A DNA stretch of 64,000 bases from positions 16,928,001 through 16,992,000 of the forward strand of contig CM075990.1 of assembly GCA_038087875.1 (NCBI GenBank). The letters are read 5' to 3'. Every line of letters begins with the position of its first letter. Within the stretch, counting starts at the first letter, position 1. The notes under the pieces were generated by a model. It searched no databases and had not been told where the DNA came from. It saw only the letters and a program-made list of their open reading frames with translations. This DNA is from Malacoraja senta (lineage: Eukaryota). Made by a program: the position numbers and the translations under genes. Shown here piece after piece: positions 1,544-61,314 of the stretch.

Positions 1544-2076
1544 CGACAGAGGTTCACCTGCATCTCCTCCAACCTCATCTATTGCATCCGCTGCTCTAGA
1601 TGCCAGCTGATCTACATCGGTGAGACCAAGCGGAGGCTTGGCGATCATTTCGCCGAACACCTCCGGTCGGTCCGCAGTAACCAACCTGAACTCCCGGTGG
1701 CTCAGCACTTCAACTCCCCCTCCCATTCCGTATCTGACCTCTCTGTCCTGGGTCTCCTCCATGGCCACAGCGAGCAACACCGTAAATTGGAGGAAATGCA
1801 CCTCATATTCCGCTTGGGCAGTCTACATCCTGGTGGCCTGAACGTTGAATTCTCCCAATTCTGCTAGCCCTGGCTGTCCCCTCCCCTTCATCAGCCCTCT
1901 GGTTGTCTCCTCCCTTCCCCCAGCCCTCGGGCTCCTCCTCCGCCTTTTCCTTTTTTCCTTTCTTCTCCCCACCCCCTATCAGTCTGAAGAAGGGTTTCGG
2001 CCCGAAACGTTACCTATTTCCTTCGCTCCATAGATGCTGCTGCACCCGCTGAGTTTCTCCAGCATTTTTGTGTACC
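1544..2076 (+). mobile_element. Penelope-like element fragment (degenerate GIY-YIG C-terminus plus pLTR with hammerhead core)
   Basis: Translates [48 protein letters not shown]...GAAAC at 1984-2008; flanking CTCTTTTAA duplication at 1535-1543 and 2077-2085. Confidence 0.85.
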
Positions 2077-2388
2077 CTCTTTTAATGCATGATCTATCTC
2101 GGCTACCTCCCCAGGGAATTCTAAATACCCACCACCCTCTGAATGAAAAAGTTCATTAACACTATCCTACACCCGCTAGAGGCAATTTTTACATTTACCG
2201 AGCCAATTAATCTACAAACCTGTTCATCTTTGGAGTGTGGGAGGAAACCGAAGATCTCGGAGAAAACCCACGCAGGTCACGGGGAGAACGTACAAACTCC
2301 GTACAGACAGCACCCGTAGTCGGGATCGAACCCGGTCTTCAATGTACAGGTCCATGTACGCTGACTGTGCGTGTACACGAGTCTGTGA

Positions 2389-2439
2389 GTGCGTGTGTGT
2401 GTCCCAGCAGTGAGGTATCAGAGTGCCCTTGTACTCCAT

Positions 2440-2473
<34 letters not shown>

Positions 2474-2995
2474 CCCAGCAGTGAGGTTTCAGTGCCCTTG
2501 TCCTCCATCAGTGTGTGTGTGTGTGTGTGTATCCCAGCAGTGAGGTATCAGAGTGCCCTTGTACTCCATCAGTGTGTGTGTGTGTGTGTGTGTGTGTGTA
2601 TCCCAGCAGTGAGGTATCAGAGTGCCCTTGTCCTCCATCAGTGTGTGTGTGTGTCCCAGCAGTGAGCTATCAGAGTGCCCTTGTCCTCCATCTCTGTGTG
2701 TGTGTGTGTGTGTGTATCCCAGCAGTGAGGTATCAGAGTGCCCTTGTCCTCCATCAGTGTGTGTGTGTGTCCCAGCAGTGAGGTCTCAGAGTGCCCTTGT
2801 CCTCCATCAGTGTGTGTGTGTGTGTCCCAGCAGTGAGGTATCAGAGTGCCCTTGTCCTCCATCAGTGTGTGTGTGTGTGTCCCAGCAATGAGGTATCAGA
2901 ATGCCCTTGTACTCCATCAGTGTGTGTGTGTGTGTGTGTGTATCCCAGCAGTGAGGTATCAGAGTGCCCTTGTCCTCCATCAGTGTGTGTGTGTG
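2389..2995. repeat. Composite minisatellite: ~40-bp core plus variable (GT)n, about 10 units
   Basis: Core TCCCAGCAGTGAGGTATCAGAGTGCCCTTGTCCTCCATCA alternating with GT runs. Confidence 0.95.
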
Positions 2996-3071
2996 CGAGA
3001 GGCAGTACGTTCTTTTTTAAACTATCGATTTATTAGATGATTATTTCCTCGTAGTCAATCTTGATTTTCAG

Positions 3072-3168
3072 AATCCGTGCGATGACAGACGCCACAAGGA
3101 CATTTGGTCGAAAGAAAAGACTTGCGACAGGCTGCCAAAGTTCCTTATCATCGGCCCTCAAAAAACTG
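3072..3168 (+). CDS. NDST2: NDST2 exon: [32 protein letters not shown](G)
   Basis: ttttcag|AATCCG...ACTG|gtaact, 97 nt, contains PAPS-binding Lys. Confidence 0.95.
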
Positions 3169-6100
3169 GTAACTACATTCTCTGATTTAGTCCAGTTGAA
3201 TCATTGGAATCTTTCCCTGGTCCCACCATGATACACATGGGTGTCGATATTTATCAGAAGTGCAAACGTCTGCTGGGAGACTATTTTCATAATTTTTGTC
3301 AACTTAAGAGCAAACCAGTTAGTTCCTCTAGTTTCAGAAGGATCTGGGATGTTGATTAGATTTTTTATTGTCATTTGAACCTCCCCTATGTCCCGTGTAA
3401 TAGGGGAGGTGTCACACTATCAGAGAGTCTTCCTCCAGATTAAATATTCTGCCAAGCTCAGAGCTCCCTGCTGACCTCTGGTGTTTTGGCCTTTAGCGAT
3501 ACAGTATGGAAACAGACCATTCGGCCCACCGGGTCCGTGCCGACCAGTGATCCCCAGACACACTAAACACTATCCTACACACACTAGGGACAATTTACAA
3601 TTTTACCCAAGCCAATTAACCTACAAACCTGCACGTCTTTGGAGTGTGGGAGGAAACCGGAGCCCCTGGGGAAAACCCACGGAGAGAACGTGCAAACTCC
3701 GCACAGACAGCACCCGTAGACAGGGGTGACCCCGGGTCTCTACCCGCTGCGCCACCGTGGAAGATATTTGAGGAAGGTATAACCGTGAAGCTCAATGCAG
3801 AGTGGAAGAAAGCTGGATGTCTGAAAATGTTGTCTGTTGATCATAACCTCTTTTCCTCAGGTACCACAGCGTTGCACTTTTTCCTGTCCTTACACCCTGG
3901 GATCATGAGTAATTTCCCCAGCCCTGTCACCTACGAGGAGATTCAGTTCTTCAACGGCGCCAACTACCACAAAGGAATAGACTGGTGAGCGAACGTCACT
4001 ATTGTCAAGTGGACGATGCGGACAGGGTAGGGAGTGGCGGGGAGTGGGGTGGAGGGGAGGGGGGTTGTTGAGGAAGGGGGAGGGGGTGGGGGAGGGGGAG
4101 GAGGAAGGGGGGAGGGAGGGGAAAGGCAAAGGGAGCGGGGAGAGATAGGGCTCTTAAAAATAGCGGAGTCAGGGGATATGGGGAGAAGGCAGGAACGGGG
4201 TACTGATTGGGGATGATCAGCCATGATCACATTGAATGGCGGTGCTGGCTCGGGGCTGAATGGCCTACTCCTGCACCTGCACCTATAGTCTATTGATTAT
4301 TGAGACTGGGCATGGAGTAGGCAGGAGGGGATGGGGAGGGAGAGGGGGGGAAAGGGAGCATGGAGTGGGGGGGGGGGGAGACAGGTAGGGAGAGTTGGGT
4401 GGGCTGTGAGGGGGGGTGAGCTCTCCACCATTCCACATCCAACAAGCTGCATCGTTTCTCAGGTACATGGAGTTCTTCCCCATCCCGTCAAACGTGAGCA
4501 CAGACTTGACGTTTGAGAAGAGCGCCAATTACTTTGAGTCGGACGTGGTGCCCAAGAGGGCGGCAGCCCTGCTTCCCCGAGCGAAGATCATCGCCATCCT
4601 GATCAACCCGGCAGAGAGGGCATACTCCTGGTACCAGGTACACGCCGGCCTCCAGCCCCCAGGGAGAGAGAGGGGCACACACTCCCTAAATAACCCAACC
4701 CTTATGTCGCATCTTATAGTCGAGGAGCGCAGAAACAGGCCCTGCGGCCAAACTTGCCAACACTGACCAACATGTCATAAGTGATAGGATCAGAATTGGG
4801 CCATTCGGCCCATCAAGTCTACTCCGCCATTCAATCATGGATGATCTATCTATCCCTCCTAACCCCATTCTCCTGCCTTCTCCACATAACCCCTGACACC
4901 CGTACTAATCAAGAAAGCCCCATCTGCGCTAGTCCCACCCATATCCCTCCAAGGCCCATATCCCTTCGAAGCCTTTCCTATCCATGTACCTGTCCCAATG
5001 TCACTTAAGCATTATGATAGTACCTGCCTCAACTATTTCCTCCGGTAGCTCATTCCATACACTCACCATCCTTTCTGTAAACAAAAAGTTGCTTCTCAGG
5101 TTCTTATTAAATCTTTCCCATCCTCACCTTCAACCTGTCCTCTGGTTCTCGATTCCCCAGTTTTAAACCTCCAGTTTAAATTCCAATTTGGAATATTTTG
5201 GAGGACCAAGAAACCAAGAAACCAAGAAACCGACTATGGGTAAAAGGCTCAGCATTCACCCGAAGATAGACACAAAAAGCTGCAGTAACTCAGCAGGATA
5301 GGCAGCATCTCTGGAGAGAAGGGATGGCATTCACTCTATCTGTTCCATCCAGGGTAAGGTGCGTTGAAGGTTTGGTAGACTTCTTGGATTTGGGCACTAG
5401 TTGGATGATTATTTCAAAGAGGCCGTTGTGATCAGAGAGGCTGAATCATCGCTGTGCATCTCCGCCAGTCTCTTATTGAGTTGGTTTCAGCAAAGAATCT
5501 GAAAGTCAAAGCACTGGGTTTTGTATTAGATCGGTCGTTTGTTGAGAGAGTTAAGGCGGGAGCCTCTGGAGATCTAAAATACAAACCAGGTTGTACAGAA
5601 ACTCTGGCATGGTAACACAGCGGTAGAGTTGCTGCCTCACTGCACCAGAGACCCGGGTTCGATCCCGACTACGGGTGCTGTCTGTATGGAGTTTGTACGT
5701 TCTCCCCGTGACCCGCGTGGGGTTTCTCCGAGATCTTCTTTTTCCTCCCACACTCCAAAGACGTGCAGGTTTGTGGATTAATTGGCTTGGTATAAAATGT
5801 ATATTGTCCCTAGTGTGTGTTGGGTAGTGTTAGTGTGTGGGGATCGCTGGTTGTCACGGACTCGGTGGGCCGAAGGGCCTGTTTCCAAACTGTATCTTGA
5901 AAAACTCAACTCAACTCAGCGGGTCACCAGCCTGTTTGGAAAGGAGTTTTGTGTTTTTGATAAAGTTGATGTCGTTGTATCTGTGGCTGGAAGATGACCA
6001 GCTGCTGAAGCTGACAGTATACACATTGAACATTTATCACCAGTGACCTCCCTCAACGTGTTCAATGCAGTCGGACCTGGGTACAACATTGTACCAGAGA

Positions 6101-9100
6101 TCAGACCAGCATTCCTGTTAGAAACAACAGCAGCCTTTGGAAGGAGAGTTGTGTTGCAGAAAGCAAGGTTTTGTTTTGGTTTGCGCTGTTCGCATTCATC
6201 ACCGGCCCCTGATCAGCTCAAAGAGCAGTGAGGACCTTGAACTATGCAGTCCTTCATCCAGTGAAGGTCCTTGTGTCGGGAGTCCTGGGACGTAGACACA
6301 GATGTCCTGGGATGGAATGGTTGGTGTGGTGGCCATATAATACAATGCACCATCTCCTGACTGCAAAACCAGGCTGTGTTCCCTGGCATGTAGACAGTGA
6401 TGTGATTGAAGTTAAAGCCGGTGTTGGGGTGGGTGGTTGGAAGGAATCTATTTCTGCTGGACAGTGAGTCTCGGAATAGATTAGAATCTACCATCCAACA
6501 TAATCCAACTGGTGGCACAGTGGCACAGCCTTAGAACTGCTGCCTTACATCACCAGAGACCTGGGTTCGATTCTGACTACGGGTGCTGTCTGTATGGAGT
6601 TTGCATGTTCTCCCCGTGACCGTGTGGGTTTCCCCAGATGGTCAGGTTTCCTCCCACACTCCAGGTTTGTAGGTTAATCACTAGCGTGCAGGGTAGGAGT
6701 GATCATTGGTCGGCATGGACTCGTTGGGCCAAAGGGCCTGTTTCCATGCTGTATCGGGGCAGTGAGGGTTAGGAATGCTGGGTCAAGCAGCATCTTAAAC
6801 GTGAGATGGAGAAACATACAAGGTCATTCAGCAGAGAGTAGCAATGGCAGGAAATGGTGAAACAGGCTCCAGTAGGTAAATAGCCTCTTCCATTCAGCAC
6901 ATTCTCTCAGCAGAACACTGAGACCATTCAGCCCATCAAGCTCCTTCCACAGTTCAACTGCATCCAAATTCCAAGTTGGTGTTAGTGACCGTTGATGTTG
7001 TTGCTGTAACAGAGTTCTGTTTGTGATTCCCTCCGGGTACTGGCATGTCGACATGCAGTCGTACAGCACGGAAATAGGCCCTTCAGCCCAACTTGTCCAT
7101 GCCAACCCATGCTGCCCCATTTAAGTTCATCTAATTTTACTGAATTTGGCTCGTATCCCACGAAACATTTCCTATCCATGTACTTGTCCCAAGAGGCTTT
7201 TATCAACCAGCTTGATCCATAGTGACTGAACACGTGGCCCCTGGGGTTCCTGCTAAATCTCGCCCCTCTCTCCATAAACCCATGTCCTCTTGTATTTACC
7301 AAAGACAGCCACAAAGTGCCCGGAGTAACTCAGCGGGACACGCAGCATCTCTGGAGAGAAGGAATGCGTGACGTTTCGGTCGTCACCCTTCATTAGGGTC
7401 TGAGTTACTCCAGCATTTTGTGCCTATCTTCGGTATAAACCAGCATCTGCTGTTCCTTCTTACACACTCCTCTTGTTTTTGATGCCCCTACTCTGGGTGA
7501 AAGACTGTGTGCATTCACTCTATCTATTCCCCTCATGATTTTGTACACCTCTATAAGATCAGCCCTCATCCTCCTGCGCTGCAAGGAATAGAGACCCAGC
7601 CTGCTCAGCCTGTCGCCATAGCTCAGGACCGTGAGTCCTTGCAACACCTTCACGAACCCTCCCACTGCCTGCGATACACCTGCTCTAGACGGACACAACA
7701 TGCTGGAGTAACTCAGCGGGTCAGGCATCATCTCTGGAGAAAAGGAATAGGTGACGTTTTGGGTCTCGACCCGAAAAATCACCTAACCATGTTCTCCAGA
7801 GATGCTGCCTGACCCGCGGAGTTAGCCCAACTTTTTGTGTCGATCCAAGGAATTCTAATCTGATCTGATAAAGGAATCCAAGTTCAAGTTCAAGTGAGTT
7901 TATTGTCATGTGTCCCTGATAGGGCAATGAAATTCTTGCTTTGCTTCAGCACAACAGAACATAGTAGGCATTGACTACAAAACAGATCAGTGTGTCCATA
8001 TACCATTATATAAATATATACACACACATGAATAAATAAACGGATAAAGTACAAATAACAGATAATGAGCCCAGGTACATCTGTAAACATAACTATTTTG
8101 TCTAAACCAGCATCTGCACTACCTTGCTATACACCTGCTGTAGTTATGTCTGTGTACTCATGTATGTTGGTTACTCTGCAGCATCAGCGAGCCCACCAGC
8201 TGCCCGCGGCTTTGAACTTCACCTTCCACCAGGTGATCAGCGCCAGCCCGGATGCCCCCAGGGAGGTCCGCCTTCTGCAGAGTCGCTGCCTGCTTCCAGG
8301 CTGGTACGCCACACACATTGAAAGGTGGTTGGCGCACTATCAGCCTTCCCAGGTAGGGTTTGTGTCCGCGTTAACGGTCTCTGCAGTCACACCTCGGGCA
8401 GAGTTTCCTCTCCGCTGTAATCAGGCAACTGAATCATGACTAGAGAGGAACCCTGAGCTACTATCTACCTCATTGGTGATCTTCAGACTATCGTTGGAGA
8501 AACTCAACGAGTGAGGCAGCATCTATAGAGCGAAGGAATAGGTGACGTTTCGGGTCGAGACCTATTCCTTCGCTCCATAGATGCTGCCTCACTCGTTGAG
8601 TTTCTCCAGCATTTTTGTCTACCTTCGATTTTTCCAGCATCTGCAGTTCGTTCTTAAACATTCAGACTATCGTTGATCGGGCTGAACCTTGCACTAAACA
8701 TTATTCACTCTTGATGTGCGATGGGATGTCTTGTTAAAATAATAATTGGCAAACATTGTTATCCCAATGCCTGATATACTGTTATCAGGCAACTGAACCA
8801 TCCTATCAACAACTGGAGAGCAGTCCTGAGCTACCATCTACCTCATCTTATAGGAACATATAAAACTATAAAAGGACTGGACAAGCTAGATGCAGGAAAA
8901 ATGTTCCCAATGTTGGGCGAGTCCAGAACCGGGGGCCACAGTCTTAGAATAAAGGGGAGGCCATTTAAGACTGAGGTGAGAAAAAACTTGTGAAGAGTTG
9001 TGAATTTGTGGAATTCCCTGCCACAGAGGGCAGTGGAGGCCAAGTCACTGGATGGATTTAAGAGAGAGTTAGATAGAGCTCTAGGGGCTAGTGGGGTCAA

Positions 9101-20807: not shown

Positions 20808-21861
20808 GAGTCCGGCGCACGCTCGCTCGTTCCCTCGCTGCCGATTTGAACAACCACTGACCTCTCCCTTCCGTTCACGAACTTCACGGGCGGAGGTAGT
20901 GGAGATTGTGCGGCGTTCCCATCCACTGGGTTGCTGGGCCAGAGACAGAACAACACTTGACCGGCCGGCCATGGGGTCACCGTGCACGGGACCACTTCCA
21001 GATACTGGAACGTGTAACACAGCACCCCTGAACCCTTGAAGTATATCCTCATCAAACTGTGGAATGATTGTTACATTGGCTGCTTTTACACCAGGAATGT
21101 CCTGTCCACTAAAAGCAGGGACATTGATGCACAGCAGAGAGTGTTAGTGACACTTGCTGGCAACCCGGTACTAACCATGTGGATACCAATTAATTATTAA
21201 ACATGTACATATTTCCTTTTTTTGAGGCAATAATTCTCAGCTGCAGTCCAGGGAAACGACTCTGTCCCATTCCTCGACCATCCCCTCCCTCCCAAACAGT
21301 CCCTGAAGGTATTTGGACATTCACGTTCAACTTCAGTTTGCAAAGACACAAGAATTTCTTCCCAAGAACCCTTTCTGGCTTAAGTTCCCCCTCCGCCATC
21401 TCCAGTTTAAATTCCATTTGGAATATTTTGGAGGAGCAGGAAACCGAGAGTGTTTAACTGTTCCATATCTGTGTCTTGTCTAAGAGACTTACAACATTTT
21501 ATCAAGGCCAGCTTGTCCTTTCTCAAGTTTTAAGGGGTCTCGGGAAAGATGTATCCCCTCCCCCCCCATGTTGGACTCAACTCATCTCACCTATTGTATG
21601 TCATTCACATTGAATGATGTTATTGGAGAATTTTACTCTCAGCCAGCTGATCCTATTGTCTAGTTTGCAGCATTCAGTGGAGACCGAGGATTTTGTTTTT
21701 CACTTTGGGTGTAAATTTTGTGGTTAAATGTGATGTACTTTGTAAGAACTTAAAACATTCTCGACATTGGCTGAGGCAAGACAGATGTGTGTAAATATTA
21801 TAACCGTACAAAACTGGTCCAGCCAAAATGAGCAGATGTGCCTGGCAATCCTCAACTGTGA

Positions 21862-21867
21862 ATTAAA
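21862..21867 (+). terminator. Candidate NDST2 poly(A) signal ATTAAA
   Basis: ATTAAA about 1.05 kb after the stop, followed by GU-rich (tctgttgtt) and G-run elements; another ATTAAA at about 21196. Confidence 0.45.
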
Positions 21868-22015
21868 ACCAAAAATCAATGGTCAGTTAATCGTCTGTTG
21901 TTACCGTCAGTACCTTCAATGTAATCATCTCCGTTCTACAGCTCAGCATTGGGGGGGGGGGGGGGGGAATAATAATATAGGGTCTGCTCGAGAGTTGTGC
22001 AGTTCTGTTTTATAC

Positions 22016-22021
22016 TTTAAT
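22016..22021 (-). terminator. Candidate ZSWIM8 poly(A) signal ATTAAA
   Basis: tttaat on + reads ATTAAA on -, with an adjacent TATAAA variant; about 0.9 kb after the ZSWIM8 stop. Confidence 0.45.
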
Positions 22022-22182
22022 CAAAAATAATCGTATGTATCCAGCACAGCACAGAATGGTAGAAGTGTTTCCTCCCTCTAATCCACACCATCCTGCTGCC
22101 CACTAAACCAGGCACCGTCATGATGATTCCGAGACGTGACAATGTCGGAACCACAGCAGGAACGGACACAAGTGATGTGGAC

Positions 22183-22219
<37 letters not shown>

Positions 22220-22913: not shown

Positions 22914-23120
22914 TCAAGGGGAGAAGGTCGCCATTTCCAACGAGATCCTTTGCCACAAGTCCTTGCTCTGGCCTTTTGCTCGTTTTAAATTCTGTAGGAT
23001 TTCGTTGAACTGCATCATTCCAACGGGAGTCAGGCAGAAGGCGCTGCGTGCGCTGCGGATGATGTTGACAAAGTCATCGTAGTCTGTGGGGGTGATGTGG
23101 TACAACCTGTACTGGATACA
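22914..23120 (-). CDS. ZSWIM8: ZSWIM8 last coding exon CIQYRLYHITPTDYDDF...LEMATFSP*
   Basis: ccacag|TGTATC..., 207 nt including TGA. Confidence 0.95.
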   Translation of the reverse strand, partial: CIQYRLYHITPTDYDDFVNIIRSARSAFCLTPVGMMQFNEILQNLKRAKGQSKDLWQRISLEMATFSP

Positions 23121-53100: not shown

Positions 53101-56100
53101 GAGGAGAGAAGGGGATGACAGAGCCTGGCAAGTGAGAGGTGAGGGGGGGGGGGGGGGGCTTTGATGGACAGATGGGTGGACAAAGGCCAGAGATGAACAG
53201 AATACCTAAGGCTGTAAGATAAGCAAAGAAGAGGACTGAAATGTAAAGCCAGTGGAAAGGATACAGAGTGAAATGAAAGGGAAACAAGAGATATGGACAG
53301 TGATGCAGAGAGATATAGAACAAATGAATGGACGATATGCAGGAGTAATGATGATAAAGGAAACAGGCCATTGTTAGCTGTGGGCTCGGTGTAAATGAGT
53401 TAGCGACAAGTTTACATCTTGACGTCACGCTGTCGCTGCCTATTCCCACAAGTCAGTGAAAGTACATTTCTGCAGGCTGCCCTCTCCATTGTTGTGAAGG
53501 AATGCAACAATGTGCAGCCAAGACATGGAGCTGTATATTTCCTCAGGGCACTCTCCAAATGACATCCCCCACTGCACCACAACAATGTACAGTGATGATA
53601 GATGTTTGTGCCCTGCCAGCCTTACAGTGGGCAGCTGTAGGAGTGGAATACCATTGTGTTTAGTAACGAGTTCCATGTGGAGCAGGATAAGACGTGACTC
53701 CCACCGACCGAGGGACTTCACCCTGGCCGCAAGTTCGCAAAGTTCTCAGCTGGGCCGGCGGGTAGAGCTGCTTCCTCACAGCGGCAGAGACCCAGGTTCG
53801 ATCCTGACTACAGGTGCAGCCTGTATGGAGTTTGTACGTTCTCCCTGTGACCTGCGTGGGTTTTCTCCGGGCGCTCCGGTTTCCTCCCACATTCCAACGA
53901 CCGACAGATTCGGTAAGAATTGTAAATTGTCCCTGGTGTCTAGGTTGGACGATCGCTGGTCGGCGCGGAGTCGATGGGCCGAAGGGCCTGCTTCTGTACT
54001 GTATCTCTGAGCTTTTTACCAAGGATGGCAAACTTCCTAACCAACATAGACACAAAATGCTGGAGAAACTCAGCAGGACAGGCAGCAACTCTGGAGAGAA
54101 GGAATGGATGACATTTCCAGTCGAGACCCTTCTTCAGATCAAGGAAACTGTGTGCAGTTTTGGTCTCCAGATTTGAGGAAGGACATTCTTGCTATTGAGG
54201 GAGTGCAGCGTTGGTTCACAAGGTTAAAAGCCGGGATGGCGGGACTGACATATGTTGATAGAATGGAGCGGCTGGGCTTGTATACTCTGGAATTCAGAAG
54301 GATGAGATAGGATCTTATAGAATCATACAATTCTTAAAGGATTGGACAGGCGAGATGCAGGAAAAAAATTCCCGATACTGAGGGAGTCCAGAACCAGGGG
54401 CCACAGTTTAAGAATAAGGGGTGGGCCATTTAGAATGGAGATGAGGAAACACGTCTTCACACAGAGAGTTGTGAATCTGTGGAATTCTCTGCCACAGAAG
54501 GCAGTGGAGGCCGATTCACTGGATGTTTTCAAGAGAGAATTAGATTTAGTTCTTAGGGCTAACGGAATCAAGGGATATGGGAAAAAGCAGGAATGGGGTA
54601 CTGATTTTAGCTAATCAGGCATGATCATATTGAATGGCGGTGCTGGCTCGAATATTTCTGTGATATTAAAGAAAACAACTCATTCATTTGCGTTCTCCAA
54701 GGACACAAATCAGCATCACCTGACCAAGTTCGGTGTGTGGTCATCATGACTCATAGAAACTGGTTAGAGGGAGGGAGAAAGCTGGAGCAGAACTGGAGGT
54801 GGCAGAAAGCTTGGCAAGTGATAGGTGGCTGCAGGTCAGGGGAGGGGGTGATTTGCAGAAGTGATGCCGGCTCGAGGTGAAAAGGAGACAACAGGGTTTC
54901 AGATAAGGAGAGAAGAGGAGAAGAGATTATGTCCAGTATCGCGCGGGAAGGAACAGCAGATGCTGGTTTAAACCGAAGGTAGACACAAAAAGCTGGAGTA
55001 ACTCAGCGGGACAGGCAGCAGCTCTGGAGAGAAGGAATGGGTGATGTTTCGGGTTGAGACCTTTCAATAGACAATAGGTGCAGGAGTAGGCCATTCGGCC
55101 CTTTGAGCCAGCACCATCATTCAATGTGATCATGGCTGATCATCCACATTCAGTACCCGGTTCCTGCCTTCTCCCCATATCCCCTGACTCCACTATCTTT
55201 AAGAGCTCTATCTAACTCTCTCTTGAAAGCATCCAGAGAACCGGCCTCCGCCACCCTCTGAGGCAGAGAATTCCACGGACTCACAACTCTCTGGGTAACT
55301 CTCTTTCTTCAGACTGATGTCAGGGGAGAGGGAGATAAGGATGTGTACGGTGTGAAAACAGGGCAAAGGGAATGGGGATCAAGGAACATGTAGACTAGAT
55401 CATTGTTAGCTGGGAGAAGGTAACAACTAAACAGAGATAATCCACTGAACTGACAGTCAGGCCCAAAGGTCAAGCAACTACAGCGCCACCCACATGCATT
55501 ATGCATTAATCAGTGTAATACTACTCGTTATAAAATATCTTATGACTTATGATCAATAATAGTGCAAGACACTTGCTATTTATAATGAATGAGCTCTTAA
55601 TCAGACTTGGATAAATACTTCTTGACATTGGCCACGTTACTGCTCAATGGTTGGGTAATGGACATGCAGCAAACAAAATGGAAGCTGAAAACCAATTGTT
55701 CATGGTATGAGGCTAAATGGTGCAGTGAAAGACTTGGTTCTGCATGCTGTAGGTCGACATAAAATGCTGGAGTAACTCAGCGGGACAGGCAGCATCTCTG
55801 GAGAGAAGGGATGGGTAACGTTTTGGGTCATGATGCTTCTTCAGACTGAGCTCTGTCCAGAGATGCAGCCTGTGGAGAACCTATCCATGTTCTCCACAGA
55901 TGCTGCCTGACCTGCTGAGTTACTCCAGCACTCTGTGAAACGTCACCTATCCATGTTCTCCACGGATGCTGCCTGACCCGCTGAGTTACTCCAGCACTCT
56001 GTGAAACATCACCTATCCATGTTCTCCACGGATGCTGCCTGACCCGCTGAGTTACTCCAGCACTCTGTGAAACGTCACCTATCCATGTTCTCCACGGATG

Positions 56101-58522
56101 CTGCCTGACCCGCTGAGTTACTCCAGCACTCTCTCTTTTGTTTCCTGAACCCCAAGAACATTTCAAGGGAAGTCACAAAATCAACGGCCCGGAGTTAACT
56201 CTTTACCAGACCCTTTACGTGGTTGGCAGGCAGGGAAAGGGCATTCTTGGCTGAAGTACGATGTCTTTAATCAGCAGCTTACCTATCTGAAGTGGATCTT
56301 TAACCGCTCGCACTCTGAAGAGTTGGTCTCCTCGTTGGAACTCATCGGCACTGCCATTAGCCAGGCATGAGTACAACCTGAGGACAAGATAAGAGCACTT
56401 CATTATGTTAGAAGCAGAACATCTCGCAATGCAAGGTGGTGGACACTGCCCGCTCCATCACAGGTACTGACCTCCCCACCATCGCAGGCATCTACAGGAG
56501 ACACTGCCTCAAGGAGGGCATCAGCATCATCAGAGACCCACACCACCCAGGCCACCCTCTCATCTCACTCCTGCCATTGGGAAGAAGGCACAGGAGCCTG
56601 AAAACTGTATGGTCCAGCTTCAGGAACAGCTTCTTCCCAACAACCATCAGGCTATTGAACACAACAAACACCAACCAAACTCCCAACTACAAATCACCAG
56701 CATTGCACTCTGCACTTGGAGGCATATTATTTGTCTTTGCACTATGTTCTGTTCTAGAGCAGTAACACACAATGTCCGTGCCTGCTCACGCCCCATGTCC
56801 CTGCATATCCATGTGCCTATCTAAAAGTCTCTTGTACTCCACGACGGCATCTGCCTCCATCACCTGGCAGTGTGTTGTAGGCACCCATCACTGTGTCAAT
56901 TACTTGCCCCGTGCATCTTCAGGGCATGGTAAGTAGTGACTGAGGATCAATGGCACCAGCTGTGAGGGCCAATATTCCAACAGGAAGCATCAAACATTGC
57001 AGTCTAAACCTCTCGGCTAATCTTGGAGGCTAGCAGTGTGCGACAGCTCATTAGATCTGGACATGTGCCCAGGAAACAGCACAGAACAGGTGGAACACCC
57101 CTTCATCTCCCCACTAGTCTCTTCCTCCTACACTCATCCAGCTACTTAGCCATTGGATTAGTCAACGATCTGATCTGCTCAGCCTTATGGACGTCACGAG
57201 TAATTCATGTCAAGGTTAGAAAACAAGGAACTGCAGATGCTGTTTCGGGTCCAGCCCTGAAACGTCATCTATCCATGTTCTCCAGAGATGCTGCCTGACC
57301 CGCTGAGTTACTCCAGCACTCTGTGAAACGTCACCTATCCATGTTCTCCACGGATGCTGCCTAACGTGAAGGCTGCCTGATGGTTTTGTGCAAGAGGCGG
57401 GCAACTGGAGGTCCCCAACAAGACTAAAGCCGATGCTCACTGCTGGCTCCTGGAGCTGAAACTAGGCAGTCAGGGAAACCCCCAGCTGGGCTGGCCCAAC
57501 ATACAACATGTTAAACATACAACACATTAAACATACTACCTACAAATAAGCTCTGTACTACATAGACAGCAGCATTGGGATTGCCTTTTTGCACTATTAT
57601 TGTCACTATATACGCTAACATTAGTGTGAGTGTGTGAGCGAGAGTGTGCAAGAGTGTGTGTGTTTATATATAAGCTAACACTATTATATGTGTATATATA
57701 TATATACACATATATATTTTATATATATATAATGTATATATATAATGTATATATATATATATATATAATAGTGTTAGCTTATATAATAACAAATATATAT
57801 ATATGTGTGTGTATGTATATATGTGCGTGTATATACACACACACACGCTCACTTAACTTTCTTTTTCTCTCGTTCATCACATTGTTTACAGTGTACTATG
57901 TTTCCATATTGTGTTGAGCTGCAGCAAGTAAGAATGTCATTGTTCTATCTGGGACACACATGACACTAAAACACTCTTGACTCTGAAGTGGCAAATGCTG
58001 CTTCATGTGTGTGCTGGAGATAGTGGAACAAGCAGAGGTTTAGTTTAGTTTAGAGATACAGCGTAGAAACAGGCCCTTCAGCCCATCTAATCTGCGCCAA
58101 CCAGCGATCTCCATTACACTAGCCCTATCCCACACACACTAGGGACAACTTACCATCTTTACCGCAGCCAATTAACATACAAATCTGTATGTCTTTAGAG
58201 TGTGGGAGGAAACTGGAGCACCTGGGGGAAACCCCACGCAGGTCACGGGGAGAATGTACAAACTCCGTACAGACAGCACCCGTAGTCAGGATCAAACCCA
58301 GTCTAGATCTGGGCTCGGTGGCAACTGGCTTGCCATTGACGGGATGAGGTGCGTTTGAGGTTTATTACCTGATGTCTTCCTCGTTCTCAGGGAAACTCCA
58401 GAAGGCAATGCGTAGTTGCAGCTGCTCAGGAACCGGAGGGTAAACCTTCTCGACCACCTCAAAGGGAATGTGGAGGGCTACCTGCTTGGCAGACAGCTCC
58501 ACCAGAGGGGTCACCTGACCAT
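22914..58522 (-). CDS. ZSWIM8: ZSWIM8 (17 coding exons visible; exon 1 outside window; several exons missing in gap; six 1-bp frameshifts)
   Basis: BC-box PLVELSAKQVA, SWIM finger CSCTCGAGAKWCAH, C-terminus LWQRISLEMATFSP*. All exons are bounded by AG/GT and are collinear with the recalled human ZSWIM8 protein. Confidence 0.96.
24510..24688 (-). CDS. ZSWIM8: ZSWIM8 penultimate exon (G)VNYVYQFCMGAAKGVLSPFVLQ...QAYMQ
   Basis: ctccag|GTGTG...ATGCAG|gtaaac, 179 nt. Confidence 0.95.
25184..25383. other. Assembly gap (200 N)
   Basis: Run of exactly 200 N, a placeholder size. Confidence 0.99.
25384..25739 (-). mobile_element. CR1/HER1-type LINE fragment abutting the gap
   Basis: RLIPGMAGLSYAERMERLGLYTLEFRRMRG. 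Confidence 0.85.
26162..26400 (-). CDS. ZSWIM8: ZSWIM8 exon ~16 ILDKLLDRESQTHKPQTLSSFYSSSKP/AASQKSPSKHG...EGSAP (one base missing at G-run 26319-26322)
   Basis: ctgtag|ATTCTG...CCG|gtacgt; homology switches frame at the C4 run. Confidence 0.88.
26497..26750. repeat. Degenerate minisatellite
   Basis: Recurrent TAGAGCTGTGTAGATGCGCATAGTC. Confidence 0.85.
27332..27457 (-). CDS. ZSWIM8: ZSWIM8 exon ~15 (G)MKTTVSEAEHPLLCEGTRREK/GDLALALMITYKDDQAKLKK (one extra base ~27390-27395)
   Basis: gtcag|GCATG...AAAAAA|gtaagt; 126 nt observed versus 125 needed. Confidence 0.92.
27731..27988 (-). mobile_element. HE1-like V-SINE
   Basis: Reverse-complement copy. Confidence 0.8.
28465..28562 (-). CDS. ZSWIM8: ZSWIM8 exon ~14 (V)VSPTGSRP/PSRNRNNEMPGDEELGFEAAVAAL(G) (one base missing at 28536-28539)
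   Basis: tcacag|TGGTC...CTGG|gttgag; 98 nt observed versus 99 needed. Confidence 0.9.
28597..29172. repeat. Minisatellite (CACACGGGGTCACC-type) grading into 8 perfect copies of CCACTAGAGGTCAC
   Basis: Direct reading; fills almost the whole 662-bp intron. Confidence 0.95.
29225..29407 (-). CDS. ZSWIM8: ZSWIM8 exon ~13 VKLAYQESEIV/ALLKKIPLG...FIFDVLCTP (one base missing at ~29375)
   Basis: ccag|GTTAAA...CCAG|gtaatc; 183 nt observed versus 184 needed. Confidence 0.92.
29541..29819 (-). mobile_element. Penelope-like 3' fragment with pLTR inserted in a CR1 remnant
   Basis: KLEEQHLIF remnant; hammerhead core at 29605-29632; GGGATTGACAGATTCTT duplicated on both sides. Confidence 0.8.
30085..30472 (+). 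mobile_element. CR1/HER1-type LINE 3' fragment
   Basis: Near-identical to 60587-60975. Confidence 0.85.
31283..31462 (-). CDS. ZSWIM8: ZSWIM8 exon ~12 GKKNKVSTHKQT...ELQRPPASTKALE
   Basis: ttctag|GGCAAG...GAG|gtaagc, 180 nt, intact. Confidence 0.95.
31536..31687. mobile_element. hAT-Charlie-like MITE
   Basis: TIR CAGGGGTGTCAAACTC / GAGTTTGACCCCTG; flanks GTCTAGAT and GAGTAGAT fit the NTCTAGAN target preference. Confidence 0.7.
32140..32443 (-). mobile_element. HE1-like V-SINE
   Basis: Reverse-complement copy with a short internal duplication. Confidence 0.8.
32509..32640 (-). CDS. ZSWIM8: ZSWIM8 exon ~11 VLFACAEALYAHG...NPPDLKVEQPQTK
   Basis: cctcag|GTCCTG...AAG|gtgaga, 132 nt, intact. 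Confidence 0.95.
32968..33605 (-). mobile_element. Rex1/Babar-type LINE 3' fragment
   Basis: AVESILSGNITNWFGNSSAQDRKALQSVVRSAE...RSFFPQAIR; (cttga)n tail. Confidence 0.75.
34247..34512 (+). mobile_element. Internally deleted Penelope-like element with pLTR
   Basis: GIY-YIG remnant; hammerhead core at 34383-34410; 12-bp TSD TGTCAGTCACAG at 34235-34246 and 34513-34524. Confidence 0.8.
34716..35698 (-). CDS. ZSWIM8: ZSWIM8 large exon ~10 RKELCAHLRQW...SSEDSSLEPDLAE...DDDYQVYYLN...LKPLDQENRME (one extra base near 34974-34980)
   Basis: ttacag|GAGG...ATGGAG|gtattt; 983 nt; homology is split between ORFs 34843..35727 and 34689..35165. Confidence 0.92.
35728..36022 (-). mobile_element. HE1-like V-SINE
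   Basis: Reverse-complement copy ending about 30 bp from a ZSWIM8 acceptor. Confidence 0.8.
36672..36903. mobile_element. PIF/Harbinger-like MITE
   Basis: TIR GGGCCTGTCCCACTTG...CAAGTGGGACAGGCCC with long internal inverted arms; 3-bp TSD TGA. Confidence 0.75.
36965..37140 (-). CDS. ZSWIM8: ZSWIM8 exon ~9 IIGWWYSVRTSASHSS...LAVLDPTMSPQ(R)
   Basis: ccgcag|ATCATC...CAAAG|gtaaaa, 176 nt, intact. Confidence 0.95.
38531..39136. repeat. Minisatellite, 16-bp unit CTCGGGAACACTGACA with an optional 8-bp sub-unit
   Basis: Direct reading, about 30+ units. Confidence 0.95.
39461..39661 (-). CDS. ZSWIM8: ZSWIM8 exon ~8 DVNSLYLSSTEPPAAAEW...DSNAAP/LLEILTDQCLTYEQ (one base missing at 39502-39504)
   Basis: ccgcag|TGATG...GAGCAG|gtaatg; 201 nt observed versus 202 needed. 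Confidence 0.92.
39702..39842. repeat. G-rich repeat (GGGGCA/GGGATA)n
   Basis: Direct reading. Confidence 0.9.
40260..41065. repeat. G-rich minisatellite, ~55-65-bp unit
   Basis: Unit ...GGAAGTGTTAGGGATGGGGGGGTTGGGGAGGGAGTGGGGGGTTGAGGGCAAGGGGGAGAG... Confidence 0.9.
41075..41195 (-). CDS. ZSWIM8: ZSWIM8 exon ~7 (D)PTAGPSASDQSTWYLDES...GPSPVVF(S)
   Basis: tggcag|ACCCA...TTCAG|gtaact, 121 nt, intact. Confidence 0.95.
41783..43093 (-). mobile_element. Cluster of CR1/HER1-type LINE 3' fragments
   Basis: TRGHRLRI...FFSQRVV..WNSLP frames in several nested pieces. Confidence 0.75.
43220..43270. repeat. (CAATCC)n microsatellite
   Basis: About 8 copies. Confidence 0.9.
44117..44394 (-). mobile_element. 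HE1-like V-SINE
   Basis: Reverse-complement copy; inverted partner at 44627-45055. Confidence 0.8.
44814..45018. mobile_element. Fold-back Penelope pLTR-derived element nested in an HE1-like SINE
   Basis: Inverted arms around the hammerhead core at 44924-44951; 14-bp TSD TGGTGGGCCGAAGG at 44800-44813 and 45019-45032. Confidence 0.8.
45103..45184 (-). CDS. ZSWIM8: ZSWIM8 exon ~6 ILPTAQRLLDELLSSQSTAINTVCGAP
   Basis: ctgcag|ATCCTC...CCAG|gtaact, 82 nt. Confidence 0.95.
45310..45827 (+). mobile_element. Rex1/Babar-type LINE 3' fragment
   Basis: MVQFYTAIVESVLTFSIMVWFGS...DPSHPGHKLFESLPSGRR; AATAAA plus short-repeat tail. Confidence 0.75.
45922..46247 (-). mobile_element. Tx1/L1-type LINE 3' end
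   Basis: Minus frame CLPLFRGCVRARLVLERDYALSTGTLGDFCDRWA, followed by an AT-rich UTR and an A-tail. Confidence 0.6.
46248..46780. mobile_element. GC-rich non-autonomous hAT (Blackjack-like) DNA transposon, left end truncated
   Basis: Ends in TGGCAACCC (reverse complement GGGTTGCCA) with multiple subterminal TACGGGAC motifs. Confidence 0.55.
47778..48275 (-). mobile_element. Rex/L2-type LINE 3' end with 3'UTR (tail family recurs at ~9230, 11510, 24790, 34525, 49690)
   Basis: DRKKLQRVVDAAQTIT...LLPSGK...[15 protein letters not shown]. Confidence 0.7.
48676..48711 (+). ncRNA. Minimal type I hammerhead ribozyme motif in a Penelope pLTR (best-formed copy)
   Basis: aggt-CTGAAGA-A-GGGT(CTCG)ACCC-GAAA-CG-TC-acct: core boxes, stem II, palindromic ACGT at stem III, 4-bp stem I. 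Confidence 0.65.
48863..48970 (-). CDS. ZSWIM8: ZSWIM8 exon ~5 ASAVCLRAPVSESLSRLQRDQLQKFAQYLISELPQQ
   Basis: ttgtag|GCATCT...CAGCAG|gtaggc, 108 nt; not shown in the ORF track. Confidence 0.95.
49061..49233 (-). CDS. ZSWIM8: ZSWIM8 exon ~4, SWIM zinc finger (G)FHLSATVV...CSCTCGAGAKWCAHVVALCLFRIHN
   Basis: gatcag|GATTC...AAC|gtgagt, 173 nt; CxC...CxH motif. Confidence 0.96.
50020..50345 (+). repeat. 66-bp tandem array derived from the Penelope pLTR (about 5 units)
   Basis: GAAAC at 50020, 50086, 50152, 50218 and 50284. Confidence 0.9.
50617..50886 (+). mobile_element. HE1-like V-SINE
   Basis: V-domain and tail. Confidence 0.8.
53752..54008 (+). mobile_element. HE1-like V-SINE
   Basis: tRNA head, V-domain and tail. 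Confidence 0.75.
54145..54652 (+). mobile_element. CR1/HER1-type LINE 3' fragment
   Basis: CVQFWSPDLRKDILAIEGVQR...[10 protein letters not shown]. Confidence 0.85.
55878..56133 (+). repeat. 66-bp pLTR-derived tandem array (about 4 units)
   Basis: Same unit as 50020-50345. Confidence 0.9.
56283..56377 (-). CDS. ZSWIM8: ZSWIM8 exon ~3 LYSCLANGSADEFQRGDQLFRVRAVKDPLQI(G)
   Basis: cctcag|GTTG...ATAG|gtaagc, 95 nt. Confidence 0.95.
56418..56750 (+). mobile_element. Rex1/Babar-type LINE fragment
   Basis: VVDTARSITG...DPHHPGH...LLPLGRR...FRNSFFPTTIRLLN. Confidence 0.7.
57624..57850. repeat. (TA)n/(GT)n/(CA)n quasi-palindromic microsatellite
   Basis: AAGCTAACACTATTATA...TATAATAGTGTTAGCTT inverted around TA runs. 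Confidence 0.85.
58039..58300 (-). mobile_element. HE1-like V-SINE
   Basis: Reverse-complement copy. Confidence 0.75.
58369..58522 (-). CDS. ZSWIM8: ZSWIM8 exon ~2, BC-box/cullin-box region (D)GQVTPLVELSAKQVALHIPFEVVEKVYPPVPEQLQLRIAFWSFPENEEDI(R)
   Basis: atgtag|ATGGT...ATCAG|gtaata, 154 nt; not shown in the ORF track. Confidence 0.95.
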
Positions 58523-59148
58523 CTACATAACAGACAAAGAGATTGCAACCAGGATTATTAAACCATCTTCATACAGCATTAGGAACATTATCACACAACA
58601 ACGAGCCTCATCTTTACCAGAAATGCCATTAAAATGGTAAGGATGGCCCAGACTATTTACAAGGATGTTGTCAGGACTCAAGGACCAGACACAGGAACAG
58701 CTTCTTCCCTGCGGTAATCGGACTAGTGAACGGTCATGTCAGGAGGTCCAGGAATAGTCTCCGTCCTCCAACCTACCCCATAACAGCCCTTGAACTTTTT
58801 TTAAATCTGCACTTACTCCACAGTTGTGACACTTTCATGCTGTAACACTATATTGTGCTCTCTGCTATTTGTCTCCTTGCCCGGTTTGATTGTACTTGTG
58901 TGTGATGTGATCTGACTGGATCGCACGCAAACTACTTTCTCACTGGATCATCAATAAACCAATACTAGTAGCAATAATGCAGCATGAGCAAACACCACGG
59001 CAATATATATATTTTTTTGCTATGGAAATATTTGATGCACAAAATACCCCACAAAGAGCTGGAGTAACTCTGTGGCTTGGACTGGTCTCTGGAGGGAATG
59101 GAGAGGCAACATATTGTGCCGGACACTTCTTCACACTTTGATACAGGG

Positions 59149-59373
59149 ACACACACACACACACAAATAAACAGCTCACTGTAATATATAAACCCTCAAT
59201 CACACACTCACACTCACACTCACACACACACACTCACACACACACGCACTCACAGCTCACTGTAATATATAAACCCTCGATCACACACACTCACACACAC
59301 ACACTCACACACACACACACTCACACTCACAGCTCACTGTAATATATAAACCCTCGATCACACACACACTCAC
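59149..59373. repeat. Composite (CA)n plus CAGCTCACTGTAATATATAAACCCTC x3
   Basis: Direct reading. Confidence 0.85.
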
Positions 59374-60377
59374 GTCTTGGAACCATGTGATGGAACCAGT
59401 CATACTTAGCAGGTTCCAAAAATAACCTCTGCCGTAAAATGCTCGCCACTGTTCCAATGAGTTATTTCTGTGCATGGAGTGGCTTTGTGTAGAATGGAGC
59501 AAGCAATGCTCCAAAGAAATGAACGATGCTTTAACTCTTTACTTCACCTTGAATGGAGATAGATTAAAGCTACCCAGAACTATCAGAGTTTCCCAGTGAC
59601 CTACGCCATGCCACATGTAACCACAAGGACAAATCTCAGCTTGCTGGGAGCACGGGATTAAACAAACCCAGGAAGCAGCACTCGATCCACACAGAGCTGG
59701 CCAATCACTCTGTCCTGCCCCGGCCAAGACCAGGATTACAGCGGCAACAGAGGGCAAGGTCGGGATGAAGCATTAAATTCAGATCCTCAGAAAGCAGATA
59801 CAATAGAACCCGTTGCAATGGAGACACAAGGAACTGAAGATGCTGGAACCTTTAGCAAAACACAAAATGCTGGAGCAACTCAGCGGGTCAGGCAGCATCT
59901 ATGGAGCGAAGGAATAGGTAACGTTTCGGGTCAAGACCCTTCTTCAGACTGTTGAAGGGTCTCGCCTATTCCTTCGCTCCATAGATGCTGCCTGTCCCGC
60001 TGAGTTTCTCCAGCATTTTTGTCTACCTGCGATGTATTGTTACTTTATTGATCGTTTTTTTGCATTTTACTTGTATTTTGCTTCCATTGTTATTTGTGTT
60101 CCTCAGCATGTGCTTTGTCCATTCATTGATCCGAAACCTTGAGTCCATGCATGGATTTCCTCACAGCCCCAAATGATGAAAACGTGAACACAGTTTTAGT
60201 TGGTGAGTTGGATGGTGAATAATTCCCTCCCATGAGAAGCAAGACAAAGCCCTGGGTGTTGTTCACTCAGGTGTGGGCGGGCCAACAGAGGCAGGAGTGT
60301 TTAAGAAGGAACTGCAGATGCTGGAAAATCGAAGGTAGATAAAAATGCTGGAGAAACTCAGCGGGTGAGGCAGCATC

Positions 60378-60975
60378 TACTGCAGTTGTACAGGGTCTTG
60401 GTGAGACAACACCTGGAGTATTGCGTACAGTTTTGGTCTCCAAATCTGAGGAAGGACATTATAGCCATAGAGGGAGTGCAGAGAAGGTTCACCAGACTGA
60501 TTCCTGGGATGTCAGGACTTTCATATGAAGAAAGACTGGATAGACTTGGCTTATACTTGCTAGAATTTAGGAGATTGAGAGGGGATCTTATAGAAACGTA
60601 CAAAATTCTTATGGGGTTGGACAGGCTAGATGCAGGAAGATTGTTCCCAATGTTGGGGAAGTCCAGGACAAGGGGTCACAGCTTAAGGATAAGGGGGAAA
60701 TCCTTTAAGACCGAGATGAGGAAAAACTTTTTCACACAGAGTGGTGAATCTCTGGAACTCTCTGCCACAGAGGGTAGTTGAGGCCAGTTCATTGGCTATA
60801 TTTAAGAGGGAGTTAGATGTGGCCCTTGTGGCTAAGGGGATCAGGGGGTATGGAGAGAAGGCAGGTACGGGATACTGAGTTGGATGATCAGCCATGATCA
60901 TATTGAATGGCGGTGCAGGCTCGAAGGGCCGAATGGCCTCTACTCCTGCACCTATTTTCTATGTATCTATGTATC
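60378..60975 (+). mobile_element. CR1/HER1-type LINE 3' end (ORF2 C-terminus plus 3'UTR)
   Basis: LLQLYRVLVRQHLEYCVQFWSP...EGVQRRFTRLIPGM...RRLRGDLIETYKI...TRGHSL; (tctatgt) tail. Confidence 0.9.
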
Positions 60976-61314
60976 TATGGAGCGAAGGAAATGGCAACGT
61001 TTCAGGCCGAAACCCTTCTTCAGACCGACTCCAAAGAGACAGGAGGCTGTTTAATCCGAAGACAGGCACAAAGGTTGGGCGGCATGGTGGCCTGGGTTCG
61101 ATCCTGACTACGGGTGCTGTCTGTACGGAGTTTGTACTCTCCGTGACCACGTGGGTTTTCTCCAAGATCTCCGGTTTCCTCCCACACTCCAAAGACGTAC
61201 AGGTTTGTGGGTTAATTGGCTTGGTATGAATGTAAAATTGTCCCCAGTGTGGTGTTAATGTGCGGGGATCGCTGGTCGGTGCGGATTCGGTGGGCTAAAC
61301 TAAACTAAACTAAA

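Follow-up and report, generated by a model that had tools for sequence, protein, structure and literature searches.

What is a small hammerhead-like motif doing at so many places along two genes of the skate Malacoraja senta? A first-pass annotation of the window (the whole stretch of 64,000 nt analysed here) had described minimal hammerheads of Penelope origin, carried mostly by short non-autonomous units resembling retrozymes or MITEs, and had proposed that copies in sense orientation could cut introns. Our analysis supports the Penelope origin, the minimal core and the shortness of most copies, but neither the separate family nor the intron cutting. With a probability of roughly 0.8, the motifs are minimal hammerheads in the pseudo-LTR (pLTR) of a Penelope-like element (PLE), likely Neptune, the copies probably being 5'-truncated insertions that were dead on arrival, decay neutrally and are unlikely to cut host pre-mRNA.

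Coding exons of the two host genes were mapped by tblastn:

3066..20804, plus strand: NDST2, exons coding for residues 574-876 of a skate homologue
22917..58523, minus strand: ZSWIM8, exons coding for residues 60-1075 and 1697-1824 of a skate homologue

The 42 loci carrying copies fall in the introns of these two genes, as had been claimed; for 1984, 59920 and 60996 the intronic place is a presumption, because no upstream exons turned up in the window.

The recurring motif itself is real. A structure descriptor built independently of the family (CUGANGA, helix II of at least 3 pairs, GAAA, UH) matched ten times in the window, every match being one of the eleven sites listed before, and these ten carry the full core of a minimal type I hammerhead. 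They lie at C3 = 1984, 34383, 44924 and 48680 on the plus strand and at H17 = 19977, 29605, 37464, 37791, 59920 and 60996 on the minus strand. Fifty dinucleotide shuffles gave a mean of 0.68 matches with any spacing and 0.1 with the observed spacing. The eleventh site, 19397, lacks C3 in the family register. The ACGT palindrome that had been seen in the stem III segment (vestigial helix III) is present in 9/10 intact cores, with ACAT at 44924. Helix II pairs form in 85.6% of cells across the aligned copies, and the family has an extra base after A9 and a helix II opening with G10.1-C11.1. The hammerhead search proposed as a check was thus positive with the descriptor and negative in an Rfam scan of the window, which returned no hammerhead family at E <= 1 and only sub-threshold miRNA matches, on inverted pairs.

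Once degenerate cores are included, the copies far outnumber the "about ten" additional ones counted before: a short profile gave 67 matches and a longer profile 68 pieces in 42 loci. A -91 extension at 48610 was judged spurious, the short profile beginning at column 5. The main copies are as follows:

1544..2077, plus strand: 5'-truncated PLE copy with GIY-YIG C-terminal ORF (1544-1867), pyrimidine-rich 3' UTR, hammerhead (core intact, C3 1984, H17 2011, helix I 2 bp) and pLTR body; sense to NDST2, in a presumed intron
15303..15959, minus strand: longest PLE copy, with degenerate Cys linker, GIY-YIG ORF, UTR, hammerhead with a 3-nt core deletion, pLTR and tail
19397..19483, plus strand: short pLTR copy beginning at U4 (without C3), 12-nt flanking direct repeat
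19913..20021, minus strand: pLTR copy close to consensus, with an intact core (H17 19977) and a 2-bp helix I; antisense, lying in the last NDST2 intron
29537..29813, minus strand: endonuclease C-terminal scrap, UTR and core-intact hammerhead (H17 29605), flanked by a direct repeat of 17 nt; sense to ZSWIM8
34127..34511, plus strand: short copy with tail, then endonuclease piece (34241-34362) and a tail-bearing hammerhead whose core is intact (C3 34383); antisense to ZSWIM8
37384..37841, minus strand: pair of sense copies with intact cores, separated by 327 nt within a single ZSWIM8 intron, one with H17 at 37791 and a helix I of 2 bp, the other with H17 at 37464 and a helix I of 0 bp; no other whole cores form a close pair
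44814..45022, both strands: head-to-head inverted pair, the plus copy with core C3 44924 and ACAT replacing the palindrome; 14-nt flanking direct repeat
48678..48770, plus strand: short core-intact copy, C3 48680, H17 48707, helix I 4 bp; antisense to ZSWIM8
49900..50361, plus strand: inverted piece and head with a U4-to-A core change, then four 66-bp tandem units starting at GAAAC
52501..53093, minus strand: cluster of seven pieces, with two arrays of 66-bp units (one head U4-to-A) and an inverted pair
55748..56132, both strands: inverted copy and 66-bp array of 3.8 units, the first beginning immediately 3' of the predicted cleavage site
57247..57364, plus strand: 5'-truncated copy and partial 66-bp unit
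59828..60036, both strands: inverted pair, the minus copy core-intact (H17 59920) with tail
60973..61049, minus strand: copy truncated at its 3' end, with an intact core (H17 60996) and a 3-bp helix I
61293..61773, minus strand: copy whose core is mutated and whose endonuclease piece (61576-61764) is degenerate, absent from the first-pass annotation

The link to a Penelope endonuclease is observed at five of the 42 loci (1544, 15303, 29537, 34241 and 61293), while the other 37 have no GIY-YIG sequence. The best-kept endonuclease, at 15535-16023, matches Pfam PF01541 with E 9.8e-05 and 23 bits (cut-off 22.6), and the hammerhead joined to it is the one with the 3-nt deletion; the sequence at 1544-1864 reaches E 0.0011 and 19.6 bits against the same cut-off. 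What remains at 29734-29829 is a C-terminal scrap and at 34245-34388 a middle piece. The GIY-YIG links named earlier at 1544, 29541, 34247 and 15304 therefore hold, with the amendments that the one at 15304 is the best-kept endonuclease and that the degenerate fifth piece had been missed. Homologues are skate proteins at 77-82% and Penelope RT+EN ORFs from rays, sharks and corals; those at 60-69% carry both RT and EN. In the window, tblastn with 75 homologues, several of them RT-bearing, revealed no RT piece associated with the copies, and no full-length element is present; viral contigs gave 0 matches. The CX2-5CxxC linker before GIY-YIG is complete in the skate homologues P0001 and P0002, and in the window copy at about 15930 its first Cys is replaced by Tyr, followed by a frameshift. 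The family is therefore likely of the Neptune clade, an assignment made from the linker motif and not from a tree. An open frame after the pLTR ATG was considered as an ORF start and dropped, because stops or frameshifts interrupt it in most of the copies that have the tail.

Judged by its sequence, then, the motif sits in the pLTR of a PLE represented by cut-short end pieces, and the family descends from a minimal hammerhead (min-HHR), which makes it a candidate ribozyme. Like the metazoan PLE min-HHRs of Cervera and de la Pena 2014 (PMC4209133), it shows CUGANGA-H, G10.1-C11.1, GAAA-C-G-UH and palindromic 15.2-16.2, placement just 3' of the GIY-YIG ORF, dispersed singles and opposite-strand neighbours; thousands of dispersed single min-HHRs were already ascribed there to truncated PLEs. 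Unlike those motifs, it has a short helix II (4-5 bp) and a 2-bp helix I in which one pair is U-A or U-G, against a published consensus of 3 bp. No cartilaginous fish occurs among the 56 motifs of their Fig. S3, skates are not represented in the published Penelope hammerhead surveys examined, and no account of the family turned up among the mostly non-subscription papers searched for Penelope in skates or sharks and for hammerheads in cartilaginous fish.

The ends of the copies bear on whether they form a family of their own. Relative to C3, 5' ends vary from -617 to +65, whereas 3' ends lie at two sites, +84..+108 and +123..+131, the second of which comes with a tail of about 35 nt and ends 14 of the 68 pieces. 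At 11/42 loci pieces occur on both strands, with arms that differ from locus to locus; the other 31 have no inverted arms. Direct repeats of 8-17 nt flank 9/42 loci, against 4.4% of 2000 random pairs. MITEs are defined by family-wide terminal inverted repeats, fixed ends and a target-site duplication of fixed length. The window copies, in contrast, have locus-specific inverted arms, no terminal inverted repeats common to the family and flanking repeats of variable length.

In non-LTR retrozymes every tandem unit, 150-450 bp long, contains a whole hammerhead; the motifs are canonical and the RNA is circular (Cervera and de la Pena 2020, PMC7229834; Li et al. 2026, bioRxiv 10.64898/2026.07.22.740005, with one chondrichthyan). 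The window copies share with retrozymes the type I hammerhead, the mostly noncoding copies and the pLTR ancestry, but their whole cores are single: intact cores lie at least 327 nt apart, none falls in tandem units, and no whole-hammerhead tandem exists among the window copies. One subfamily has 66-bp tandem units, which start at GAAAC and hold only the cleavage-site half, without CUGANGA and helix II. PLE insertions, for their part, show 5' truncation, an adjacent inverted copy and a 30-40 bp tail (Craig et al. 2021, PMC8557442; Frangieh et al. 2024, PMC11167929). Because variable 5' ends, two 3' sites, inverted pieces and tails are this published signature, we read the copies as truncated PLE insertions and not as retrozymes or MITEs. 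With the EN+ PLE insertions of these two papers they have in common a C-terminal GIY-YIG, the Cys linker (in homologues), 5' truncation, an inverted neighbour and an optional tail of 30-40 nt. They differ in that the window holds neither RT nor a full-length copy, in the subfamily with the 66-bp duplication and in a strong hotspot of 5' ends at the hammerhead.

This hotspot holds 30/54 5' ends within 20 nt (-10..+9), which exceeds plain random truncation and counts in favour of the retrozyme- or MITE-like view taken earlier. It would also fit a short, SINE-like pLTR-only RNA that starts near the hammerhead and borrows PLE protein, so that most copies would be a family of their own. Non-autonomous PLE derivatives are known from the literature, endonuclease sequence is missing at the 37 loci, and contig depth in one sequencing run, a rough measure, falls from a peak of about 27.7M over the pLTR body to 13.8M over the hammerhead and 7.1M over the endonuclease. 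The copies also form at least three sequence subfamilies, among them the one with its own 66-bp duplication. We nevertheless regard this reading as quite improbable: a single 5' boundary is absent, subfamily marks are common to the copies that reach UTR or endonuclease (1544, 15303, 29537, 34241, 61293) and the short ones, and autonomous PLE insertions show the inversion and the tail too. Splicing of the template at the CAG before helix I was rejected as well; the 5' flanks of copies starting there, compared by eye, had no common exon.

For truncated PLE insertions, the anole PLE suggests by analogy how the copies probably arose. An autonomous copy elsewhere would supply the GIY-YIG endonuclease that nicks genomic DNA, and reverse transcription would start about 60-80 or 95-105 nt 3' of the cleavage triplet; copies begun at the first site would lack the tail and those begun at the second would have it. 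An inverted second piece would often be added. Reverse transcription would usually halt or switch template near the 5' side of the hammerhead.

Helix I speaks against cleavage. Among the ten core-intact copies it has 2 bp in six, 0 in one, 3 in two and 4 in one; the family consensus is 2 bp including U-A or U-G, and the three copies with 3-4 bp owe these to private changes or flank. A third pair occurs in 3/21 aligned copies and a fourth in 3/20, and in contigs of 4/4 sequencing runs the base at 1.3 that cannot pair accounts for 91-95% of depth. Control motifs from metagenomes have a median helix I of 4 bp (n=114), with at least 3 pairs in 76/100; the window pLTR profile matched none of 123 metagenome loci, which were therefore used as unrelated controls only. 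A 2-bp helix I is not fatal to a hammerhead, because 6/56 published min-HHRs have one, all with two G-C pairs (counted from Fig. S3, PMC4209133). The 48680 copy, antisense to ZSWIM8, is atypical in that its 4-bp helix I appears borrowed from flanking DNA.

The core was expected to be better conserved than the rest of the pLTR. Against non-diagnostic body columns this is not so, with core mismatches of 20/240 against 98/1128 (p = 1). When subfamily-diagnostic columns are counted, the core is less variable (20/240 against 174/1320 in the body, p = 0.043), an indication that the core was under selection in master elements. Together with the short helix I and an unbiased copy orientation (16 sense, 15 antisense to the host gene), core decay like that of the rest of the element makes it unlikely that the window copies cut host introns, as had been proposed. 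That sense copies cleave NDST2 or ZSWIM8 pre-mRNA and so alter splicing or output is scarcely credible in our view, even with 6/10 intact cores in sense orientation and two of them 327 nt apart in one ZSWIM8 intron: helix I measures 0-3 bp in the sense intact cores, in vitro activity of min-HHRs is low even as dimers, and sense copies have not been lost.

At best, the hammerhead could work as a dimer helped by the element's own protein. The hammerhead of the anole PLE (Poseidon clade) cut only with the element's protein, and no read ends were seen at the site (PMC11167929). Activity of this kind in the element's life cycle, with some insertions copied from cleaved RNA and the 66-bp units giving the cleavage-site half in cis, is unlikely but has several observations on its side. 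In majority columns the core has no subfamily-diagnostic change, against 8/55 in the body, and the subfamily changes at H17 (C to U) and 1.1 (U-A to U-G) leave the motif legal. Five arrays repeat exactly the GAAAC-GUC half, and of 13 5' ends in +10..+50, five lie at +26..+30 beside the cleavage site (post hoc p = 0.015). Against it, both exact +28 junctions are inversions with microhomology, and both array heads that keep the 5' core have U4 changed to A. Covariation in helix I, helix II and a downstream 8-bp hairpin was not above shuffles, and RNAalifold gave a weak consensus (-4.4 kcal/mol) from which the hammerhead helices were absent. In predicted folds the core pairs with the pyrimidine tract downstream of it (median 0.74 for 9 related copies, 0.43 for 109 controls). 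Absolute dimer energies were discarded as uninformative, because 0/114 controls were favourable; folding energies ignore tertiary contacts. A split hammerhead is a long shot: one catalytic head and 66-nt units with the cleavage-site half would fold actively in cis with a 2-bp helix I and protein help, and copies starting at +28 would be genomic records of cleavage in vivo.

Read as truncated PLE insertions, the copies belong to an element of a known kind, and hammerheads in Penelope pLTRs, a known feature, are now extended to a very abundant skate family. The family became widespread although its helix I looks too short to function, in agreement with the in vitro result that PLE insertion does not require cleavage (PMC11167929). 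If the split hammerhead or the cleavage footprint were true, the arrays and +28 ends would be the first genomic evidence on the role of PLE hammerheads in vivo.

A whole minimal type I hammerhead core was found at 10 sites in the window, using a regular-expression search and a family-independent hammerhead descriptor. In 50 dinucleotide shuffles, which served as the null for the descriptor, the mean number of matches was 0.68 at any spacing and 0.1 at the spacing seen here. All 10 sites are among the 11 listed in the first-pass annotation, whose remaining site (19397) has no C3 when aligned to the family register; the ACGT palindrome described there is present in nine of the ten intact cores and missing in one. 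An Rfam search of the window reported no hammerhead family. Scanning the window with a profile of about 100 nt around the core gave 67 matches, and an extended profile recovered 68 pieces that fall into 42 loci, so the family is far denser than listed before and the earlier estimate of about ten degenerate copies was too low.

The proposed Penelope origin and linkage to GIY-YIG fragments are borne out: five of the 42 loci (1544, 15303, 29537, 34241 and 61293) extend 5' via a pyrimidine-rich UTR into GIY-YIG sequence. Of 127 candidates, 75 matched the endonuclease, including skate proteins at 77-82% and ORFs of rays, sharks and corals that join reverse transcriptase (RT) to the endonuclease. 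Since the homologues carry a CX3-4CxxC linker, given as a mark of Neptune and Nematis Penelope-like elements (PLEs; PMC8557442), and only Neptune and Poseidon are described as found in vertebrates (bioRxiv 10.64898/2026.07.22.740005), the element likely belongs to the Neptune clade. No RT piece linked to the pseudo-LTR (pLTR) copies was found within the window. Among the annotated host proteins of rays and sharks, several (P0002, P0015, P0009 and P0063, all homologous to the PLE endonuclease) terminate in PLE endonuclease sequence; these ends are either exonised fragments or annotation errors. Divergent, older pLTR copies (39287-39361, 9863-9944, 38328-38398 and 59050-59143) may belong to other PLE subfamilies.

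Two host genes were mapped with skate homologues:
3066-20804, + strand, exons of NDST2
58523-22917, - strand, exons of ZSWIM8

The top matches come from skates, with ZSWIM8 of Leucoraja matching at 89% over the query exon and NDST2 of Rhinoraja at 98%, which points to a skate as the likely host. For neither gene were the upstream exons recovered within the window, so the sites at 1984, 59920 and 60996 are only presumably intronic. This mapping also gave no match in the window to ZSWIM8 residues 1076-1696, and the assembly is therefore likely missing many exons of this gene near a 200-N gap at 25184-25383. The same introns are filled by two further abundant repeat families, which by their appearance are SINE-like and LINE-3'-end-like:
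290-447, 2151-2335, 16860-17137, 35766-36003, SINE-like examples
8844-9051, 25399-25614, 60587-60800, LINE-3'-end-like examples

Long low-complexity tandem arrays, visible as repetitive ORFs, also lie within the introns (28600-29000, 38500-39150, 40180-40950 and 62730-62850).

Relative to C3 of the core, the 3' ends of the pieces cluster at +84 to +108 and +123 to +131, with a tail present in 14 of 68 pieces, and the 5' ends range from -617 to +65. Pieces on both strands occur at 11 of 42 loci, and direct repeats of 8-17 nt flank 9 of 42 loci versus 4.4% of 2000 random pairs. These insertions show the published PLE signature of heavy 5' truncation combined with an inverted copy alongside and, in some insertions, a tail of 30-40 bp (PMC8557442). 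In the anole PLE, the tail is placed between two RT start sites (PMC11167929), and minimal hammerheads in pLTRs are described as occurring in thousands of copies per genome, most of which stand singly and probably derive from truncated PLEs (Cervera and de la Pena, PMC4209133). The inverted pair 8495-8660 is flanked by a 15-nt direct repeat that itself resembles, in reverse complement, the region around the hammerhead 5' core, as if the target had been an element-like site.

The distribution of 5' starts was analyzed for 54 non-tandem pieces, i.e. the 68 pieces minus tandem units and pieces ending before +30. Five start at +26 to +30, five upstream of -30 and 30 at -10 to +9, a hotspot which favours a short family; the explanation we prefer is that RT would stop or switch template at the helix II hairpin, a short pLTR transcript being the rival reading. 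Of the 13 5' ends in +10 to +50, five adjoin the cleavage site, with a post hoc p of 0.015, and the two exact cleavage-site ends are inversion junctions with microhomology. A pyrimidine tract with CAG, similar to a 3' splice site, ends one base 5' of the core at 1950-1983, 15430-15535 (-) and 29633-29735 (-). For Drosophila virilis Penelope, the intron end is reported to map to helix I (PMC4209133). In two copies the end of the endonuclease is followed by a GT, which is absent from the 1544 copy.

A 66-bp pLTR unit beginning at GAAAC forms five arrays, which all lie within 7.5 kb:
49993-50361, array of 66-bp units
52501-52681, array of 66-bp units
52857-53093, array of 66-bp units
55879-56132, array of 66-bp units
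57247-57364, array of 66-bp units

In non-LTR retrozymes, each tandem unit contains a whole hammerhead (PMC7229834), whereas the units found here lack CUGANGA and helix II, so the arrays do not fit the retrozyme pattern. The 66-bp junction is identical in all five arrays (49.9-57.4 kb), and the recurrence of unit variants at several array loci suggests that a master element carried the duplication. The head of the 52501-52681 array belongs to another subfamily, which suggests a template switch. The features that define MITEs are not present in the family, and the supposed resemblance to retrozymes or MITEs is not supported. In a novel but improbable reading, one head together with 66-bp units would form a split hammerhead folding in cis: each unit is exactly the partner's half in the dimer model, but U4 is changed to A in both array heads that retain the 5' core.

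Six of the ten intact cores have a helix I of 2 bp and two have one of 3 bp; one core has none, and at 48680 it reaches 4 bp, apparently with the help of the flank. In an alignment of 28 copies, the first and second pairs are formed by 16/22 and 18/22 copies with letters, the third and fourth by 3/21 and 3/20. Among the positions listed for 29510-29840, position 1.3 is an unpairable C in 91-95% of the depth in all four public runs. As a control, the identical core pattern yielded a sample of 123 metagenome loci from about 850, 39 of them adjoined by PLE protein sequence; here, helix I has at least 3 pairs in 76 and at least 4 in 58 of 100 distinct motifs of differing sequence. Its median length is 2 bp in nine window copies versus 4 in 114 controls. 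Two base pairs are not unprecedented, since we count six cases among 56 published motifs (PMC4209133 supplement), but these are all double G-C and the pairs in the window copies are weaker. In predicted folds, CUGAAGA pairs with the pyrimidine tract 3' of the cleavage site (medians of 0.74 for 9 window copies and 0.43 for 109 controls), a difference that the p-value overstates because the window copies are related.

Core decay was assessed in the 24 copies covering both core and body, in which 5'-edge truncation inflates the core count by a few mismatches. Non-CpG mismatches amounted to 20/240 in the core versus 98/1128 in the body without subfamily-differing columns (p = 1) and versus 174/1320 with these columns added (p = 0.043). 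In our reading, the core would decay neutrally after insertion, and selection on it in master elements is possible. With a core conserved no better than the body, one of the outcomes named as a refutation in the first-pass annotation applies to inserted copies.

Sense copies had furthermore been proposed to cut introns. Single-orientation loci comprise 16 sense and 15 antisense copies (12 and 14 up to position 58523), and six of ten intact cores are in sense orientation. If introns of a conserved gene like ZSWIM8 were cut, sense copies should be depleted, bearing in mind the small sample; the even orientation and the mostly 2-bp helix I make such cutting appear unlikely. The sole close pair of whole cores (37791/37464, 327 nt apart, sense) includes one without helix I. 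Published minimal hammerheads are reported as inactive as monomers and of low activity as dimers (PMC4209133; review PMC6765202), and eight of nine predicted Xenopus dimers as showing no cleavage (bioRxiv 10.64898/2026.07.22.740005). The anole PLE hammerhead is described as cutting only with the element's protein, being dispensable for insertion and leaving no read ends at its site (PMC11167929).

Four public runs placed 73,243, 70,710, 9,499 and 2,004 contigs on 29510-29840, and the family is therefore very abundant and common to four organisms; the run with the most contigs may be the sample from which the window itself derives. In that run, summed depth, which does not equal copy number, peaks at ~27.7M in the pLTR body, 13.8M in the hammerhead and 7.1M in the endonuclease. 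Among the entries listed from the accessible literature on Penelope in skates and sharks and on hammerheads in cartilaginous fish, none dealt with this family; retrozymes and PLEs are reported in one chondrichthyan (bioRxiv 10.64898/2026.07.22.740005). Minimal hammerheads in PLE pLTRs are already known, and the family in the window is a further case.
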